Positions 2,625 through 36,623 of a stretch of 64,000 nt of DNA are shown piece after piece. The notes beneath the pieces are model-generated. The model was not told the origin of the DNA. It did no database searches and worked only from the letters and a program-made list of their open reading frames with translations. The stretch is from assembly GCA_026390585.1 (NCBI GenBank), contig JAPLFP010000355.1:12779-76778 (forward strand), given 5' to 3'. The translations under genes were made by a program, and so were the position numbers. Positions within the stretch are counted from its first letter, which is position 1, and each line of letters starts with the position of its first letter. The stretch comes from Ignavibacteriales bacterium. GTDB taxonomy: Bacteria; Bacteroidota; Ignavibacteria; UBA10030.

Positions 2625-3866
2625 ATGTCGACTGTACGTCCGTTCAAAGCATTTCGGCCCAAGCCTGAGTACGCGGGAGAGGTCGCAGCAAAACCGTACG
2701 ATGTGTTGAACTCGGATGAAGCACGCGTGGAAGTCAAAGGACATCCACTCTCGTTTCTCCACATCGGGAAGCCGGAGATTGATCTGGATCCGGGAATTGA
2801 TCTCCACGACTCAAAGGTTTATGCGAAGGGGAAGGAGAATCTTCGGAATCTCATCGACCAGAAGGTGCTCGTTGAGGATCCCGAACCTTATCTCTATGTG
2901 TATGCTCAGACCATGGAGGGGCGGACTCAATACGGAATCGTCGGATGCGCTTCGGTGGAAGAATATTGGAACGACACGATCAAGAAACATGAGCTCACTC
3001 GGAAGGATAAGGAAGAGGACCGCTGCAACCACGTCCGCGTGACAAACTCGCACTCCGGTCCAATCTTCCTCACCTACCCGGACAATGCCGAGATAAACGC
3101 CATCGTAGCAAAAGTCGTGAGTGCGCCTCCGGAAAATGATCATGTAGCAGCTGACGGTATCCGGCACCAGTCGTGGGTCGTCAACGACAAATCGACGATC
3201 CTGAAGCTCCAGCAGCTCTTTGCAGCAACTCCTCATCTGTACGTCGCTGATGGACACCACCGCTCTGCAGCAGCCGGCATCGTGGGACGCGAAAGAAAAC
3301 TGGCGAATCCGAAGCATCGGGGAGACGAAGAGTACAACTTCTTCCTCGCTGTTTGTTTTCCCGCGAGTCAACTGAGAATTCTCGACTACAACAGAGTGGT
3401 GAAGGACTTGAACGGACTTTCCACGCGAGAATTCGTCGACAAGCTGAAGGGGAAGTTTTCTGTGCAGCCCATTCAAGGCCGCCCGAGACTTTCAAACAAA
3501 GGCGAGTTCGGTTTGTACCTCGATGGCAAGTGGCATATCATGACTGCAGCAGAATCATTGCTCAAGGATAACGATCCCGTCGAGCGTCTCGATGTCGCGA
3601 TCCTGCAGAATCACTTGCTGGATCCCATCCTGGGAATCAAGGACCCTCGGACGGACAAGAGAGTTGACTTCGTCGGTGGAATACGCGGCATGGGTGAGCT
3701 CGAGAAGCGTGTTGACTCAGGTCAGATGAAAGTGGCGTTCAGCATGTTTCCCACATCGGTTCATGAACTCATCGCCATTGCCGACGCCGGCAAGATCATG
3801 CCTCCCAAGTCCACCTGGTTCGAACCGAAGCTGCGGGATGGGCTCTTTGTGCATTTTTTGGATTAG
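2625..3866 (+). CDS. DUF1015 family protein (conserved serA/serC-associated protein)
   Basis: N-terminus MSTVRPFKAFRP...KPYDV and central ADGHHRSAAA are characteristic of DUF1015; conserved synteny with serA in FCB-group bacteria. Confidence 0.7.
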   Translation: MSTVRPFKAFRPKPEYAGEVAAKPYDVLNSDEARVEVKGHPLSFLHIGKPEIDLDPGIDLHDSKVYAKGKENLRNLIDQKVLVEDPEPYLYVYAQTMEGRTQYGIVGCASVEEYWNDTIKKHELTRKDKEEDRCNHVRVTNSHSGPIFLTYPDNAEINAIVAKVVSAPPENDHVAADGIRHQSWVVNDKSTILKLQQLFAATPHLYVADGHHRSAAAGIVGRERKLANPKHRGDEEYNFFLAVCFPASQLRILDYNRVVKDLNGLSTREFVDKLKGKFSVQPIQGRPRLSNKGEFGLYLDGKWHIMTAAESLLKDNDPVERLDVAILQNHLLDPILGIKDPRTDKRVDFVGGIRGMGELEKRVDSGQMKVAFSMFPTSVHELIAIADAGKIMPPKSTWFEPKLRDGLFVHFLD

Positions 3867-3970
3867 GGAATTAGTGAAGAGGCTAATTGGTTAATTAGTT
3901 AGTTGGTTAATTGGCCAGGAAGAAATCACCAGTTAACCATTCACCAATTAAAGAGCTTTGGAGGGATGTG

Positions 3971-4504
3971 ATGAAAGGAATTTTGACGGTATTGTTGACT
4001 TGCGCGCTTGTTGTGGGCGCTGCCGCTCAGCACGATATGCAGAAGATGACGAATGGCCCTGCCAAAGCCGTCGCCGTTGTCTATCCTGCAAAAGACAAGA
4101 CAGTGAAGGGTATCATTACCTTCACGCAGATGGAGAATGGTGTTAAGGTTGTTGCTCACCTCGAGGGTTTAACTCCGGGCAAGCATGGGTTCCATGTGCA
4201 TGAGTTCGGCGATTGCAGTGCCCCGGATGCGACCAGCGCGGGCGGCCATTTCAATCCTACACAGATGACACACGGCGCTCCTACCGATGCCATGCATCAC
4301 TCCGGCGACCTTGGAAACATTGTCGCTGACGACAAAGGAGTGGCGGATCTCGAGTGGCTCGATCCCATGATGCAGCTTTCCGGACCCCAGTCAATCATTG
4401 GCCGTGCGGTAATTGTACACGCTAAAGAGGATGATCTGAAGACTCAGCCTACAGGCAATGCTGGAGCGAGAGAGGCGTGTGGAGTAATCGGAGTAGCGAA
4501 ATAG
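3971..4504 (+). CDS. sodC: periplasmic Cu/Zn superoxide dismutase
   Basis: signal peptide plus HVHEFGDC, GGHFNP, HAKEDD, and ACGVIG motifs of SodC. Confidence 0.85.
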   Translation: MKGILTVLLTCALVVGAAAQHDMQKMTNGPAKAVAVVYPAKDKTVKGIITFTQMENGVKVVAHLEGLTPGKHGFHVHEFGDCSAPDATSAGGHFNPTQMTHGAPTDAMHHSGDLGNIVADDKGVADLEWLDPMMQLSGPQSIIGRAVIVHAKEDDLKTQPTGNAGAREACGVIGVAK

Positions 4505-5540: not shown

Positions 5541-6977
5541 TCACCACCCTAGCGCTTTCTTGACCCCTTCGGCATACGACGGATCAGCTTTCGCGAAATG
5601 CATAAGCTGCCGTTCGATGATTGCCTTCGGAACACCAACCATGGCGCCTGCAATTGCCTGATGCAGCCGCTTGCGTTGCTCGGGACCGAGAAGCCGGTAC
5701 AGGTCTCCTGCCTGAGTGAAATCATCATTTCCCATTCGATGATCGTACCGGTCGGCATCTCCCGATATCTTCAAAGGGGGTTCCTTAAATTTTGCATCCT
5801 CCTTCGGACCTCCCATGGTGTTCGGTTCGTAGTTGACGGACCCTCCACCGTTCCCGTCAGCCCGCATGACCCCATCGCGATAGTATGTATCCACGGAGAC
5901 GTGAGGACGATTCACCGGAAGACTTTCGTAGTTGACGCCGAGTCGGTGTCGGTGCGCGTCTGCGTACGATACGATGCGGAACTGCAGCATTTTGTCAGGG
6001 CTGTGACCGATTCCCGGTACAACATTCGCCGGAGAAAAGGCGGCCTGTTCAACTTCTGCAAAGTAGTTCTCCGGGTTCCGGTTCAATTCCATGATGCCGA
6101 CTTCGTGCAGGGGATATTCTTTGTGCGGCCACACTTTTGTGAGATCGAAAGGATTATACGGCGTCTTTTCCGCATCCGTCTCCGGCATCACCTGCACCAA
6201 TACCCGCCACTTTGGAAAGTCGCCGCGCGCAATTGCTTCGAAGAGATCTCGCTGATGGCTTTCCCTATCCTTCGCAATGATTGCCGCAGATTCTTCGTCA
6301 GTCATTGTCTTGATCCCCTGCAGCGTCTTAAAATGGAACTTGACCCAAAACCGCTGTTGCTTTGCATTGATGAAACTGTACGTGTGGCTTCCGTAGCCGT
6401 TCAAATGCCGATAGCTGCGCGGAAGACCACGATCTGAAAATAGGATCGTGACTTGATGCAGGCTTTCAGGAGACAACGACCAGAAGTCCCACATTGCAGT
6501 CGCACTCCGGAGGTTCGTCTTCGGGTCGCGCTTTTGTGTATGGATGAAATCCGGGAACTTGTACGGATCCCGGATGAAGAAGACCGGCGTGTTGTTCCCC
6601 ACCAGATCCCAGTTTCCTTCGTCTGTATAGAACTTGAGCGCAAATCCTCGGACATCCCGCTCCGCGTCGGCTGCACCTCGTTCACCAGCGACAGTGGAAA
6701 AGCGGAGGAAGCATTCCGTCTTCTTTCCCACCTTGGAAAAAATGCCGGCGGTTGTATACTTACTGATGTCCTTCGTCACTTTGAATACGCCATAGGCACC
6801 AGACCCCTTGGCGTGAACAACGCGTTCTGGAATTCGCTCACGATTGAAATGAGCGTGCTTCTCGAAAAGCTGCCAGTCTTGCACCAGCAACGGACCACGC
6901 GGTCCGGCTGTCAATGAGTTTTGGTTGTCTCCAACCGGAATCCCGGCCGAAGTGGTCAATTGCTTCTTCTTTGCCAT
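5541..6977 (-). CDS. katA: monofunctional heme catalase
   Basis: 478 aa; canonical catalase motifs ([22 protein letters not shown]-like, proximal-Tyr region RLFSYADAH variant). Confidence 0.9.
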
Positions 6978-24765: not shown

Positions 24766-25476
24766 ATGGGAAGAATATTCGAGAAACGTAAACACAAGAT
24801 GTTTGCGAGATTCGACCGTATGTCGAAGGCATTCAACCGGATCGGGAGAGAAATTGAAATTGCCGTGAAGGCTGGCACGGCCGACCCGAAACTGAACCCG
24901 CGACTGCGCATGGCAATTCAGAATGCGCGTAGCGTCAATATGCCGAAAGACCGCATTGAAGCGGCGATCAAGCGGGCATCGTCCAAGGAGACTGCGGGAT
25001 ACCAGGAAGTATTCTATGAAGGGTACGGGCCGCACGGAATCGCCATCCTCGTAGAGTGCGCTACCGATAACCCCACCAGGACCGTTGCAAACATCCGCGT
25101 CGCCTTCTCCCGCCATCAAGGGACCCTCGGATCGAGCGGCTCCATCGCTTTCATGTTCGAGCGCAAAGGCGTCTTCCGGGTTGCCACCGCGAAGATCCCA
25201 AACCTCGACGAGTTTGAGCTGGAGATGATCGATCACGGACTGGAAGATCTCGTTCACCAGGAAGGGGACGTATTCATCTACACATCGTTCCAGGACTTTG
25301 GGAAGATGGCGAAAGCGCTGGAAGAGAAAGGTGTCGATGTGACCACAACGGAGCTCCAGTACGTTCCGACATCTACGAAGGAACTCTCCGAGGCTGAGGC
25401 AAAAGAAGTTCAGGAACTGATCGACAAGATCGAGGAAGACGACGACGTGCAATCAGTGTTTACATCAATGGGGTAA
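24766..25476 (+). CDS. yebC: YebC/PmpR family transcriptional regulator
   Basis: GKIFTKL-like N-terminus, NPRLR, and NMPKDRIE motifs of the DUF28/YebC family. Confidence 0.85.
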   Translation: MGRIFEKRKHKMFARFDRMSKAFNRIGREIEIAVKAGTADPKLNPRLRMAIQNARSVNMPKDRIEAAIKRASSKETAGYQEVFYEGYGPHGIAILVECATDNPTRTVANIRVAFSRHQGTLGSSGSIAFMFERKGVFRVATAKIPNLDEFELEMIDHGLEDLVHQEGDVFIYTSFQDFGKMAKALEEKGVDVTTTELQYVPTSTKELSEAEAKEVQELIDKIEEDDDVQSVFTSMG

Positions 25477-25477
25477 C

Positions 25478-25560
25478 CACGTCAAACTCGAAACTGAAAG
25501 TCCGAAACGACAAGGAAAAGTCAAAAACAAAGTTCAAATCGAAGTGCTTTGGCAAAGAGT
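25478..25560. repeat. A/T-rich left arm of IVS-like inverted repeat flanking four-helix-bundle gene
   Basis: cgaaactgaaagtccgaaacgacaaggaaaagtcaaaaacaaagttcaaatcgaag; approximate reverse complement of 26016-26085. Confidence 0.5.
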
Positions 25561-25650
25561 AACTTCGCAATTCGATTGACCGACTTTTCGTCATCGACCT
25601 AATCCTCCTCAAAATCTCCTATATTCTGCCGGACATTCTCAGGAACTCGA

Positions 25651-26013
25651 ATGGATCAGACAGAATCGCCCCACCCATACGATCTGGAAGACCGGACCCT
25701 TCGATTCGCAAAAGCTGTGTTCGCATTCGTGCGCACACTTCCACCTTCCGTCGCAAACATTGAAGTTTCGAAACAACTGGTTCGATCCGCGGGTTCAGTT
25801 GGCGCCAACTACATCGAAGCCACTGAATCACTCGGAAAGAAAGACTTCTTAATGAAAGTGAAAATTTCCAGACGAGAAGCAAAGGAAAGCCGGTATTGGC
25901 TTGAGCTGGTGCACAGCGGACCAGATGAAGCGAGCGCGCAAGAAAGGCTCATCAATGAATCCGTCCAGTTGATGAAAATCTTCGGAGCAATTATCAGAAA
26001 CCGGCAATCCTAG
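25651..26013 (+). CDS. four-helix-bundle protein (23S rRNA intervening-sequence protein family, TIGR02436/PF05635-like)
   Basis: GANYIEA and REAKESRYWLEL signature residues of the family. Confidence 0.8.
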   Translation: MDQTESPHPYDLEDRTLRFAKAVFAFVRTLPPSVANIEVSKQLVRSAGSVGANYIEATESLGKKDFLMKVKISRREAKESRYWLELVHSGPDEASAQERLINESVQLMKIFGAIIRNRQS

Positions 26014-26015
26014 CT

Positions 26016-26085
26016 CTTGGTTTTTGAAATTTTGAGCTTCCTTTTGTTTTTCGATCTTCGGATTTGATTTTTCGCAGTGTGGATT
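26016..26085. repeat. A/T-rich right arm of IVS-like inverted repeat
   Basis: ctcttggtttttgaaattttgagcttccttttgtttttcgatcttcggatttgatttttcg; reverse complement resembles 25478-25560. Confidence 0.5.
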
Positions 26086-26094
26086 GATTGGGAG

Positions 26095-26135
26095 CAACAA
26101 AAAAAAGCCCCACACTTGTGAGGCCCTTTGTCCTA
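26095..26135 (-). terminator. rho-independent terminator of the oxidoreductase operon
   Basis: on the minus strand, ggcctcacaagtgtggggc followed by a T8 run. Confidence 0.6.
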
Positions 26136-26175
26136 CCAGACCAGCCGCCGATGTGAACCGACGACTGCAAGATTC

Positions 26176-33059: not shown

Positions 33060-33312
33060 CGGAAGGATGAATCTGGAAATACCAAGGAAACTCTAAATCC
33101 GTAGTCAAATAAATCCTAAATTCCAAATTCGAAGTCTCAAAGAAATCTCAAACCCTAAATCCGAAATCTCAAAGAAATCCCAAACTTGAAATTGCAAACA
33201 AACACAAGACTCGAAAACCAAAGCAGGAACCCATTTGAGATTTGTCATTTAGGATTTCGTATTTCCTTTGTATTCCCTTGGGATTTCGATATTAGAGTTT
33301 CGGATTTTGCCC
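33060..33312. repeat. A/T-rich low-complexity inverted repeat ('empty' IVS-like element)
   Basis: left half is rich in AAATC/CAAAG units (aaatctcaaagaaatc x2); the right half is its approximate reverse complement (gagattt, ggatttcg). Confidence 0.5.
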
Positions 33313-33322
33313 TTCACTCTTG

Positions 33323-33715
33323 TCAGTTCACGATTTCCACGATCCCACGTTTCGTTGGTGACACTCGGATGCGGACGCGAATCGAATCTCCGTCGCTGGC
33401 GACAATTTTCCCAACGCCAACAATCACACAGTCATCATCTTGTGCACTTTCGACGTAGTACCGTGCGTTTGGGTTTTCCCCCATCGCGGCTATTTGTCCG
33501 ATCGTCACACCGTTGAAACTCTTGTTGCCTCCTCCTTGCGTCGCCGGTTTCCAGTAATACGTCAGCGCTTTTCCTGCGAAGGCGTGCAGGTCGGTCATGA
33601 TCGCACTTCGGGTGTTTTCAACTGCGTTTGCTGAGAACATGGAAACGCCGACGAAGATCGCTACACCGACAAGAATCACAGCCAAAATAACGAGCAGGAG
33701 TTGTGTTTGTCCCAT
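33323..33715 (-). CDS. hypothetical membrane-anchored protein (pilin-like N-terminal hydrophobic helix)
   Basis: N-terminal TM helix followed by an ~100-aa beta-rich domain; no confident family assignment. Confidence 0.4.
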   Translation of the reverse strand: MGQTQLLLVILAVILVGVAIFVGVSMFSANAVENTRSAIMTDLHAFAGKALTYYWKPATQGGGNKSFNGVTIGQIAAMGENPNARYYVESAQDDDCVIVGVGKIVASDGDSIRVRIRVSPTKRGIVEIVN

Positions 33716-36383: not shown

Positions 36384-36420
36384 TGAGCGTGTCTACCTGT
36401 GAAGAATGACAGGATCTCGT

Positions 36421-36456
36421 CACTGTATATACTGTATATAAGCTATATATACAGTT
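36421..36456. promoter_or_regulatory. candidate GntR operator: ACTGTATATA-AGC-TATATACAGT palindrome with extra upstream half-site
   Basis: perfect 10-bp inverted repeat 38-70 bp upstream of the GntR start codon; matches the GntR-type T-rich operator style. Confidence 0.55.
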
Positions 36457-36623
36457 GGAGAAAGTCAAGTGAAAAATGAGCCTTGAATCGGTTCCGAAGG
36501 ATGCTCAGATTTCGGTGGGAGCCTTAGATAAAGAGGATGCGACTATGCTGAATGATCGAACCTGAGACAGGCACAACCCGTGCCTGTCTCAGCGAGAGAG
36601 TAAAGTGAAACACCGTTTGCCGT

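Follow-up and report, generated by a model that had tools for sequence, protein, structure and literature searches.

Inverted heptad arrays enclosing a four-helix-bundle protein gene: an old copy of a widespread cassette and an ORF-less derivative in an Ignavibacteriales contig

Introduction

What kind of element is formed by a gene of the 23S rRNA intervening sequence (IVS) protein family when it stands between ordinary protein genes, enclosed by A/T-rich flanks that resemble inverted copies of each other? The question is raised by positions 25484–26074 of a 64,000-nucleotide stretch, here called the window, of contig JAPLFP010000355.1 from an Ignavibacteriales bacterium (assembly GCA_026390585.1). 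A first-pass annotation had proposed that this gene, for a four-helix-bundle (4HB) protein, lies outside rRNA between arms that are approximate reverse complements, that a second locus near 33.1 kb is a palindrome of related arms without an open reading frame (ORF), and that both belong to a family of loaded and empty elements, either IVS-like or similar to MITEs (miniature inverted-repeat transposable elements). The analysis of the window and of its relatives gave the following answer: 25484–26074 represents an old and in part eroded copy of a cassette of very wide distribution, in which the arms and the gene make up a single, sharply bounded unit, placed between ORFs in operons, hundreds of them and unrelated to one another, of many phyla, and 33067–33320 is an ORF-less derivative of this cassette with expanded arms.

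The "four helix bundle proteins" of the PF05635/TIGR02436 family are among the commonest unexplained small bacterial genes: one search returned thousands of clusters of relatives, and at least 599 matching stretches were found among species-representative genomes. The contexts known hitherto for them were only rRNA IVSs and diversity-generating retroelements (DGRs). The cassette architecture described here appears to be undescribed so far at the family level. No Rfam family for free-standing 4HB genes in heptad hairpins was found, nor any paper describing such cassettes, in a literature coverage that was incomplete, so that an earlier description is possible; text matches to arm sequences in the literature were unrelated primers only.

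Architecture of the cassette family

Loci with relatives of the window protein were collected in two sets, 80 from metagenomes (63 of them non-redundant) and 80 from species-representative genomes, making 160 fetched and 143 non-redundant loci, with the three closest homologues of the window protein left out. Individual loci are designated by L plus a number, and the window copy by WIN. The hosts belong to more than 12 phyla (Bacteroidota, Ignavibacteriae, Planctomycetota, Verrucomicrobiota, Chloroflexota, Desulfobacterota, Omnitrophota, Patescibacteria, Gammaproteobacteria and others), and about 93% of the 143 loci share one build, with inverted heptad arrays on either side of the 4HB gene. 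The arms were evaluated by inverted-repeat alignment scores, which served as the arm test instead of folding energies, and by a 5-mer model (threshold score, 60) trained on the metagenome arms and then applied to the independent set of 80 genome loci. In the latter, an upstream array of A type was detected in 77/80 loci, a downstream array of T type in 76/80, and both in 74/80. The mean inverted-repeat score was 41.6 for the flanks of 4HB genes, as compared to 17.6 for other ORFs of the same loci and 18.7 for shuffled arms. Averaged over the 63 metagenome loci, the 60 nt before the ATG contained 35–51% A and were poor in G, while the 75 nt after the stop codon contained 42–51% T and were poor in C, with background composition farther out. 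The arms remained AT-rich in genomes of 61–68% GC.

Ungapped profiles anchored on the core gave a precise picture of the arms. Each consists of exactly four AAATNCK heptads plus a core (AAACAA upstream, with AAACAA(A/T) as the fuller form, and TTGTTT downstream), amounting to about 35 nt; the third heptad is often AATATCK or AAGCACK, and the columns are random past position 33. The arm consensus is nnAAAtnCnAAatnCgAAantCgAAAtnCnAAACAAattcnAAa. The outer ends are crisp, AAA on the upstream and TTT on the downstream side, and they abut host stop codons, ribosome-binding sites or start codons. No target-site duplication was apparent, as 3–6-nt direct repeats at the arm ends were no commoner than with permuted partners (82 loci). 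On the inner side, the ATG is placed exactly 6 nt past the core in 37 of 75 loci (AAACAAATTCAAATG), and therefore pairing of the arms would include the start codon in the stem. Inward, the 7-nt rhythm persists over several units of the ORF's 5′ end, and also across the approximately 28 nt that separate the stop codon from the downstream core.

Concerning the forms without a gene, 782 kb contained 29 ORF-less hairpins of 106–249 nt, of which 18 had both cores, and the other segments positive with the k-mer model (64 in 559 kb) were mostly adjacent A–T pairs, i.e., ORF-less hairpins as well. With about 93% of 143 loci carrying the 4HB gene between arrays and 29 hairpins devoid of ORF, the proposal of a family of loaded and empty elements was supported, and this family is very large. 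A second ORF within the arms was present in only three loci (L152, 4377–4751, coding for a NOV_C protein, PD-(D/E)xK-like; L019, 996–1349, and L103, 3251–3883, both without Pfam match). The idea that ORF-less hairpins generally retain a relic of the start codon was discarded, because this was true of just 4 + 4 of the 29.

Some individual loci displayed particular arrangements of the arrays. The upstream arm of an acidobacterial-type cassette (L012, 2825–3000) contains about 17 tandem CGAATAT units, from which it follows that heptad arrays expand by slippage; this parallels the IVS of the Coxiella 23S rRNA, where the number of repeats differs among strains (PMC4990558). L081 (3723–4570) carries a full A–T hairpin before the 4HB gene and another one after it, and L110 (3740–5084) has up to seven arm segments around a single 4HB gene. 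These nested or tandem arms suggest repeated insertion of hairpins into, or beside, each other. In L099, a 4HB paralogue with 34% identity (5605–5940) is located 1.2 kb from the main one; it has no AAATNCK arms and its own inverted repeat is based on TAAAATTAGCAA, showing that a single genome can hold cassettes of different arm types.

The window gene and its protein

The gene at 25651–26013 (+ strand) codes for 120 amino acids. In profile hidden Markov model (HMM) searches, its product scored 52.5 bits with PF05635 (23S_rRNA_IVP; cut-off 33.8) and 75 bits with TIGR02436 (four helix bundle protein; cut-off 24), which places it in the S23p or 23S rRNA IVS protein family. An AlphaFold2 (AF2) model, obtained from an alignment of 37 relatives, showed four helices in a clean bundle with a pLDDT of 92, and the identification of the gene as coding for a 4HB protein was thereby upheld. 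The top structures retrieved by Foldseek were 2RLD (BT_0352; E = 2e-5, TM 0.76–0.84) and 2GSC (Xcc0516), followed by Avd (4DWL, 8UB7). The solved relatives 2RLD and 2GSC contain five chains each.

Within the family, the window protein belongs to a 4HB subfamily marked by the motif GS(V/I)GANYIE; it is 52–98% identical to the proteins of all 160 fetched loci and keeps 29 of the 29 invariant residues of the subfamily alignment. In the comparison with the L001 copy, which is 98% identical, the dN/dS ratio was 0.12, and the window protein is thus under purifying selection. Its net charge, from a residue count made by hand, is about +2, i.e., roughly neutral. PF05635 was the sole Pfam match of this all-helical protein, in which neither an HUH/Y1 transposase nor any known catalytic motif was detected, and PADLOC and PHROGs gave no match for the gene.

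The two elements of the window

The upstream neighbour of the 4HB gene codes for YebC/PmpR (24766–25476, + strand, stop codon at 25474–25476), and the downstream neighbour is a convergent operon for 2-oxoacid:ferredoxin oxidoreductase (POR; from 26176 onward, − strand, terminator at 26129–26102). At gathering thresholds, Rfam gave no rRNA or other match in the 64-kb window, and around the cassette none even at E ≤ 1; with YebC and POR as neighbours, the gene is outside rRNA, as had been proposed, and not in an rRNA helix, the location expected of an rRNA IVS. The tRNA scan found no tRNAs. Near the cassette there was no reverse transcriptase and there were no template/variable repeats (TR/VR), and Pfam searches on the ORFs of 22.4–36.0 kb returned housekeeping families only.

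In the whole 64 kb, the k-mer arm model responded at three places only, 26017–26075 (T type), 33067–33208 (A type) and 33229–33320 (T type), all of them in the expected orientations. In the same stretch, five of the nine best matches of an arm HMM fell in the 33.1-kb palindrome, and one in each arm of the cassette.

The right, T-type arm of the cassette (26014–26074, + strand) comprises an inner segment of 30 nt, the TTGTTT core (26044–26049) and about 3.5 outer heptads (TTCGATC TTCGGAT TTGATTT TTCG). Its k-mer score was 63.5 at 26017–26075, just above the threshold, its identity to the L001 counterpart is 96%, and the distance from the stop codon to TTGTTT is 30 nt, with a family median of 28. 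The left, A-type arm (25484–25547, + strand), supported by inverted-repeat alignment and a weak HMM match (25484–25508, + strand, E = 3.2), is less well preserved. It begins 8 nt past the YebC stop codon, on the same strand, filling the gap after the co-oriented upstream gene, and consists of eroded AAANNNN heptads, the AAACAA core (25525–25530) and then TTCAAATCG, a relic that stands where the family consensus has AAACAAATTCAAATG with its start codon. The k-mer score of this arm was 34, against the threshold of 60, and in L096 and L081, two syntenic loci, the arms can be aligned with its outer part. The distance from its core to the ATG is 120 nt instead of the 6 nt that are the family norm, since a spacer of about 100 nt intervenes in addition to the erosion of the heptads.

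Comparison of the syntenic loci identified this spacer (25548–25650) as lineage-specific. It contains a conserved (GTCG)TAnATTC box, at about 25620–25628, of which TAnATTC takes up 25620–25626, some 25–35 nt before the ATG of the 4HB gene, with equivalents in L096, L081, L002 and L168; GTCGTAnATTC-like boxes are confined to the syntenic YebC–4HB–POR lineage, being part of a spacer that other cassettes lack. The box resembles a −7 promoter element of Bacteroidota type, and no sigma-70 consensus promoter was found in the spacer region. It may be that the box belongs to the gene's own promoter or to its 5′ untranslated region (UTR), in which case the window lineage may have acquired a promoter of its own in the spacer. 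The left arm and spacer taken together gave no support for a local hairpin (z = −0.44).

The two cassette arms (compared as 25478–25577 and 26014–26113) gave an inverted-repeat score of 29, as compared to 18.0 ± 3.2 for arm-wise shuffles (5/1000 reached 29), which corresponds to the 97th percentile among the flanks of other ORFs. The energy of the arm duplex was −36.7 kcal/mol versus −28.7 ± 4.2 kcal/mol in shuffles (22/500), a marginal result. So, the arms are genuine as sequence complementarity, in excess of what composition explains, yet weak, and their description as approximate reverse complements holds with that qualification.

The ORF-less hairpin at 33.1 kb showed much stronger signals. 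Its A-type side (33067–33208; k-mer score 95.9) is built of about four tandem direct repeats of 32 nt (some 4.5 heptads each; TRF period 32, 2.5 copies) and ends with a AAACAAAC core; it contains two arm-HMM matches (33110–33140 and 33174–33209, + strand). A loop (33209–33228), defined from predicted structures and without coding capacity, as the ORF list is empty between the arms, leads to the T-type side (33229–33320; k-mer score 88.3, also supported by inverted-repeat alignment), which includes the best HMM match of the window (33307–33279, − strand, E = 0.021) and terminates 2 nt short of the stop codon of a minus-strand ORF (33323–33715). The inverted-repeat score of both sides was 54, against 20.1 ± 3.4 for shuffles (0/1000), and the core duplex had an energy of −43.2, against −26.2 ± 4.1 (0/500; z = −4.2). 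The second locus is therefore a palindrome of related arms without ORF, as first described, with its boundaries now set at 33067–33320. At the two loci, the arms did better than shuffled controls, and many copies exist elsewhere.

Orientation, mobility and history of the site

Most cassettes are oriented like their host genes: the upstream neighbour was co-oriented in 115 of 128 loci, the downstream one in 113 of 129, and both in 92 of 115. This co-orientation of about 90% points to reliance on transcription by the host. Between the upstream stop codon and the ATG of the 4HB gene, the median distance was 60 nt, which means that the arm fills the intergenic gap. Concerning mobility, 4HB genes with 88–93% nucleotide identity were found between unrelated flanks (e.g., L089/L102/L115/L090 and L143/L158). 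No transposase or recombinase was consistently near the loci; a scan of IMG/VR found no relatives on viral contigs, and phage records yielded one partial match only.

The YebC–POR site occupied by the window cassette was compared among relatives with about 89–90% identity in POR-gamma. The cassette was present in L002 and L168–170 and absent from L161, L162 and L171, where the YebC–POR gap measures 177–209 nt and holds neither gene nor arms. In the filled syntenic loci (WIN, L001, L002, L081, L096 and L168), the arm starts directly past the YebC stop codon and is followed by a spacer of 100–290 nt with a GTCGTAnATTC-like box. The window-site cassette looks like one old insertion that was vertically kept. 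A replacement of alleles, considered at first because the 4HB proteins of WIN and L096 are only 60% identical beside POR proteins 96–99% identical, was withdrawn, since the filled syntenic loci share arm position and spacer box. The gap between the 4HB proteins is explained by fast protein evolution (dN of 0.34 versus 0.087 for YebC in the WIN–L096 comparison, i.e., about four times faster) with neutral divergence near saturation (YebC dS, 1.9). A tract of low divergence was found also between WIN and L001, where the dS of the 4HB gene was 0.09 versus 0.43–0.64 for POR; this may be ordinary homologous recombination, and it was not counted as cassette exchange.

Another observation concerns the gaps of two cassette-free loci from sister lineages, L161 (3070–3280) and L171 (932–1110). 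Here a GC-rich hairpin is enclosed by a small palindrome of another kind (GTTCGATATTGG ... CGAATATCGAAC), which has the T part before the A part and is negative with the arm model. It could be a scar left by an element, or else a bidirectional terminator with no relation to it.

Distant relatives with other heptamers

Ten distant relatives (35–39% identity) from cyanobacterial and Chloroflexota plasmids (Nostoc, Anabaena, Pseudanabaena, Chlorohelix) were all, 10/10, located between inverted arrays of about four heptamers. The heptamers were other than AAATNCK: AATTCAA, AATTCGC, AATTCGT, GAAGTCG, CAAGTCG, GATGAAG and others, often forming perfect inverted repeats of 31–39 nt. The type of heptamer tracks the relatedness of the proteins, as a 91%-identical pair had AATTCGC in both members, and a 95%-identical pair had GAAGTCG and GAGGTCG. 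Judging from these sequences, gene and arms are inherited as one unit. Covariation of the arms was visible only at this level, between subfamilies, where the heptamer has changed and the inverted symmetry is kept. The plasmid relatives thereby disclose what is constant in the whole family, namely the period of 7 nt, the number of about 4–5 units and the inverted symmetry around the gene.

The plasmid copies L177 (Chlorohelix), L178 and L179 (cyanobacterial) were found between helicase-related and N-6 DNA methylase genes, or beside cas1 or cas2. A PF05635 gene located between cmr3 and cmr2 has been published (PMC3936711), and 23S_rRNA_IVP genes are scattered across several rRNA insertion sites in CPR bacteria (PMC11270868). 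These published cases, like the plasmid copies, agree with the reliance on host transcription to which the orientation bias points. The association with CRISPR loci may be simply the result of cassette insertion into operons.

Comparison with known systems

The closest resemblance is to the S23p IVSs of 23S rRNA in Coxiella burnetii and Leptospira, which have a PF05635 ORF of about 120 amino acids enclosed by stem-forming inverted repeats, exist also in ORF-less versions, and measure approximately 0.43–0.6 kb, as the cassettes do. In Coxiella, the inverted repeats of the S23p-encoding IVS form a 28-bp stem and excision is by RNase III; three tandem GACAGAT heptamers plus a degenerate fourth one stand right before the ATG, and the 5′ cut of RNase III occurs at the first repeat (PMC4990558). 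The cassette family has likewise tandem heptamers directly 5′ of the ATG (four plus core, as compared to 3–4). There are also differences: the sequence of the heptads (AAATNCK versus GACAGAT), the longer and imperfect stem (about 79% complementarity versus a near-perfect one of 28 bp), the purifying selection on the window protein in contrast to the decaying Coxiella ORF, and the location, which for the window cassette is between protein genes and not in an rRNA helix, with the family co-oriented with its neighbours. Of the two characterizations in the first-pass annotation, the IVS-like one was favoured by the Coxiella heptamers before the ATG, while the absence of target-site duplication argues against a classical MITE. 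The likeness to MITEs, and to integron attC cassettes, is that all are short, promoter-less or non-autonomous inverted-repeat units with loaded and empty forms and co-oriented insertion in transcription units; apart from the missing duplication, the cassettes differ in that no integron platform or integrase is nearby and in having an inverted repeat whose two halves flank the ORF, in place of one at its 3′ end.

Tandem heptamers have been reported before in Xanthomonas, with about 186 arrays of GGGAATC per genome, and heptamers GGGAATC/GGGGAYT in Xanthomonas and Nostoc; 70–75 pairs per Xanthomonas genome are convergent (inverted), and the arrays, which are mostly transcribed, are placed mainly between aligned ORFs near start or stop codons; the authors took them for sequences that form G-quadruplexes and whose function is unknown (Rehm et al. 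2015; PMC4692102). According to the supplementary table of that work, a four-unit (GGGAATC)4-like array overlaps by 17 nt the start codon of XCC0516 and is 6 nt from bccP (PMC4692102); XCC0516 is the PF05635 protein of PDB entry 2GSC. The term "S23" occurs 0 times in its text and supplements, and no link to S23p or 4HB proteins was made there (PMC4692102). Unlike the G-rich repeats of Xanthomonas, AAATNCK cannot form G-quadruplexes.

The arrangement of a small gene flanked by an inverted hairpin repeat, with ORF-less hairpins dispersed in intergenic regions, is also that of the REP/REPIN–RAYT systems (REPtrons). In contrast to RAYT, which is an HUH/Y1 transposase, the cassette protein is an all-helical 4HB protein; the arms are tandem heptad arrays and not single REP sequences, and the cassettes extend to many phyla. 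Avd shares fold and Pfam family with the window protein at about 14% identity, and avd genes are not known to occur within heptad arrays. It is the only characterised relative: a pentameric barrel that binds RNA stem-loops, and whose own 3′ coding end pairs, in DGR RNAs, with downstream (spacer) RNA (bioRxiv 10.1101/2023.10.23.563531).

Proposed mechanism and alternatives

The interpretation that we consider most probable, at roughly 60%, is that of a selfish cassette of IVS type, which would be co-transcribed with the host genes and whose arrays would pair into a stem that loops out the gene and is cut by RNase III. Transcription would be that of the host operon, or perhaps, in the window lineage, would start from a promoter in the acquired 100-nt spacer. 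In the transcript, the arrays would form a long, imperfect stem with the gene looped out and the start codon buried, bringing the host flanks together. By analogy with the S23p-encoding IVS of Coxiella 23S rRNA, which has the same build and is the sole precedent, with cutting demonstrated by experiment, this stem would be a substrate of RNase III. In this way the element could reside without harm in helices of rRNA or among the genes of an operon.

Several data weigh against this interpretation. The arms of the main subfamily are only about 79% complementary, and at their variable heptad positions the actual partner pairs no more often than a permuted one. For the G/T position, covariation is confined to the locus as a whole (0.649 for the same position versus 0.642 for other heptads), and this position follows GC content (rho = 0.41). 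So, without covariation of positions in the main subfamily, what is conserved is a motif in each arm and not individual base pairs. Mismatches of G–U and A–C type were equally frequent (97 versus 90), so that selection for a helix in the sense-strand RNA is not indicated. Folding energies were unexceptional, with a raw duplex value of −42.6 for the flanks of 4HB genes and −39.1 for those of ordinary ORFs; RNAduplex energies, and with them the z-scores of whole-region folds, were dropped as tests because the GC-rich flanks of ordinary ORFs reach equal energies. The difference between duplexes formed by arms of the same locus and across loci was modest (−42.2 versus −37.3; Wilcoxon p = 7e-5), as one motif is common to all arms. 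Each of the 143 loci is flanked by ORFs upstream and downstream, none of them being a copy inside an rRNA gene. In the window itself, the arms are degenerate, neither of the two arm-HMM matches in the cassette is significant on its own (E = 3.2 and 8.2), and about 100 nt separate the left arm from the ATG; whole-region folds were no better than shuffles (z = −0.75 and −0.80, the former for the cassette).

The absence of covariation in a conserved motif would be explained, as would the fixed period and unit number amid changing sequence, if the arms were arrays of binding sites for the encoded 4HB protein. This is the main alternative and is possible, though we lean against it. A putative pentamer would bind one array, some 35 nt in length, with five units of 7 nt to the ring, as RNA or single-stranded DNA and in a sequence-specific manner, and the arrays would serve autoregulation or act as cis sites for maintenance or mobilisation, in a manner similar to REP/RAYT; pairing would be secondary, and the idea is compatible with processing by RNase III rather than exclusive of it. 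It agrees with the retention of primary sequence (AAAT, C, AAACAA) over more than 12 phyla, with the equal frequency of both mismatch types, and with heptamers that change while period 7 and about 4–5 units are constant and that track the protein in the Nostoc plasmids. It agrees too with the five chains of 2RLD and 2GSC, with the pentameric state and RNA stem-loop binding of Avd (bioRxiv 10.1101/2023.10.23.563531), and with the 4HB gene being the sole constant cargo, as other ORFs were found in three loci only. On the other hand, the window protein, with a net charge of about +2, differs from the basic Avd, and other subfamilies have about 4.5 repeats and not exactly 5. Moreover, the perfect inverted repeats of 31–39 nt in Nostoc fit selection for pairing or a copying mechanism that produces it, and the co-inheritance of gene and arms is sufficient to explain the tracking of protein by heptamer.

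A rather unlikely alternative is that of a mobile hairpin acting at the DNA level, of MITE, REPIN or PATE type, mobilised by an enzyme encoded elsewhere, in which the function of the arms would be that of terminal inverted repeats or else of folded single-stranded DNA ends, and the 4HB gene would be a passenger or an addiction module. The frequency of ORF-less copies near loaded ones (29 in 782 kb, 18 with both cores), the crisp ends without target duplication, as in elements of HUH or single-stranded-DNA type, the near-identical cassettes with unrelated flanks, and the expansion and contraction of the arrays, as seen with (CGAATAT)17 in L012 and with the 32-nt units at 33.1 kb, would all be in line with it. 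Nevertheless, no transposase or recombinase is consistently nearby, the co-orientation of about 90% points to selection at the level of the transcript, the conserved 4HB protein is a near-universal cargo under purifying selection, and the searches of viral contigs and phage records gave no relatives and one partial match, respectively.

Two further explanations were considered very improbable. The first is pairing by chance composition, with an A-rich leader, a T-rich trailer and an unrelated AT-rich palindrome; although the whole-region folds, the cassette duplex (22/500) and the insignificant HMM matches of the cassette would suit it, it is contradicted by the complementarity, which shuffles of matched composition reach in 5 of 1000 cases at the cassette and in 0 of 1000 at the palindrome, and by the confinement of the three k-mer matches to these two loci, and is ruled out by the cross-locus data, i.e., the ordered architecture in about 93% of 143 loci and in 10/10 distant relatives. 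The second and least credible, that the gene is a DGR accessory of Avd type with flanking DGR RNA elements, could be argued from the Avd fold (4DWL, 8UB7) and the RNA duplex between the 3′ end of avd and the downstream spacer, and is ruled out at the window locus by gene content, since there is neither reverse transcriptase nor template/variable repeat, the neighbours are housekeeping genes and PADLOC/PHROGs were negative, while the 143 loci each consist of a single gene inserted between host genes that are unrelated.

Implications

In the free-standing copies, the gene sits within inverted arrays that number about four heptamers, a precise and conserved architecture which they have in common with the IVS of Coxiella. 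This joins three literatures, those on rRNA IVSs, on S23p/Avd proteins and on tandem repeats of heptamers, in which four units are preferred, and offers for the three a testable model that comprises stem processing by RNase III, binding of a pentamer to the arrays, and joint movement of arms and gene. For annotation, it is relevant that the cassettes split operons and sit in cas and restriction–modification loci, and that heptad arrays can be mistaken for simple-sequence or G-quadruplex repeats.

A broader proposal can be put forward as speculation that we regard as unlikely. A putative 4HB pentamer, as the sequence-specific partner of its own heptad arrays (about five 7-nt units per ring), would constitute with them an unrecognised self-propagating element, the loaded form of which would be the 4HB genes found in operons, CRISPR–cas loci and rRNA genes, and the empty form the bacterial tandem-heptamer repeats for which an explanation has long been wanting (cyanobacterial repeats of STRR type, Xanthomonas GGGAATC and the AAATCCG hairpins). 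If this were true, rRNA IVSs would be merely the subset that landed in rRNA.

Other observations in the window

Three other sites of the window gave results in their own right. The 3′ UTR of the POR operon (26095–26175, − strand) was predicted to fold into three hairpins, including the terminator, with −34.8 kcal/mol and z = −4.8. Its sequence is 97.6% identical in L001 and is kept also in L096, although the synonymous sites of the adjacent POR genes are 40–60% diverged. It may be a small RNA derived from the 3′ UTR, or a regulatory element.

An AT-rich stretch of low complexity (3862–3950), between the co-oriented ORFs 2625–3866 and 3911–4504, contains short inverted repeats of TTAATTGG/CCAATTAA-like units, and may represent a further small hairpin repeat, of another type. 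Finally, the segment at 36414–36489 is AT-rich, contains the near-palindromic TGTATATACTGTATATAAGCTATATATACAG, and looks like an operator or a promoter.

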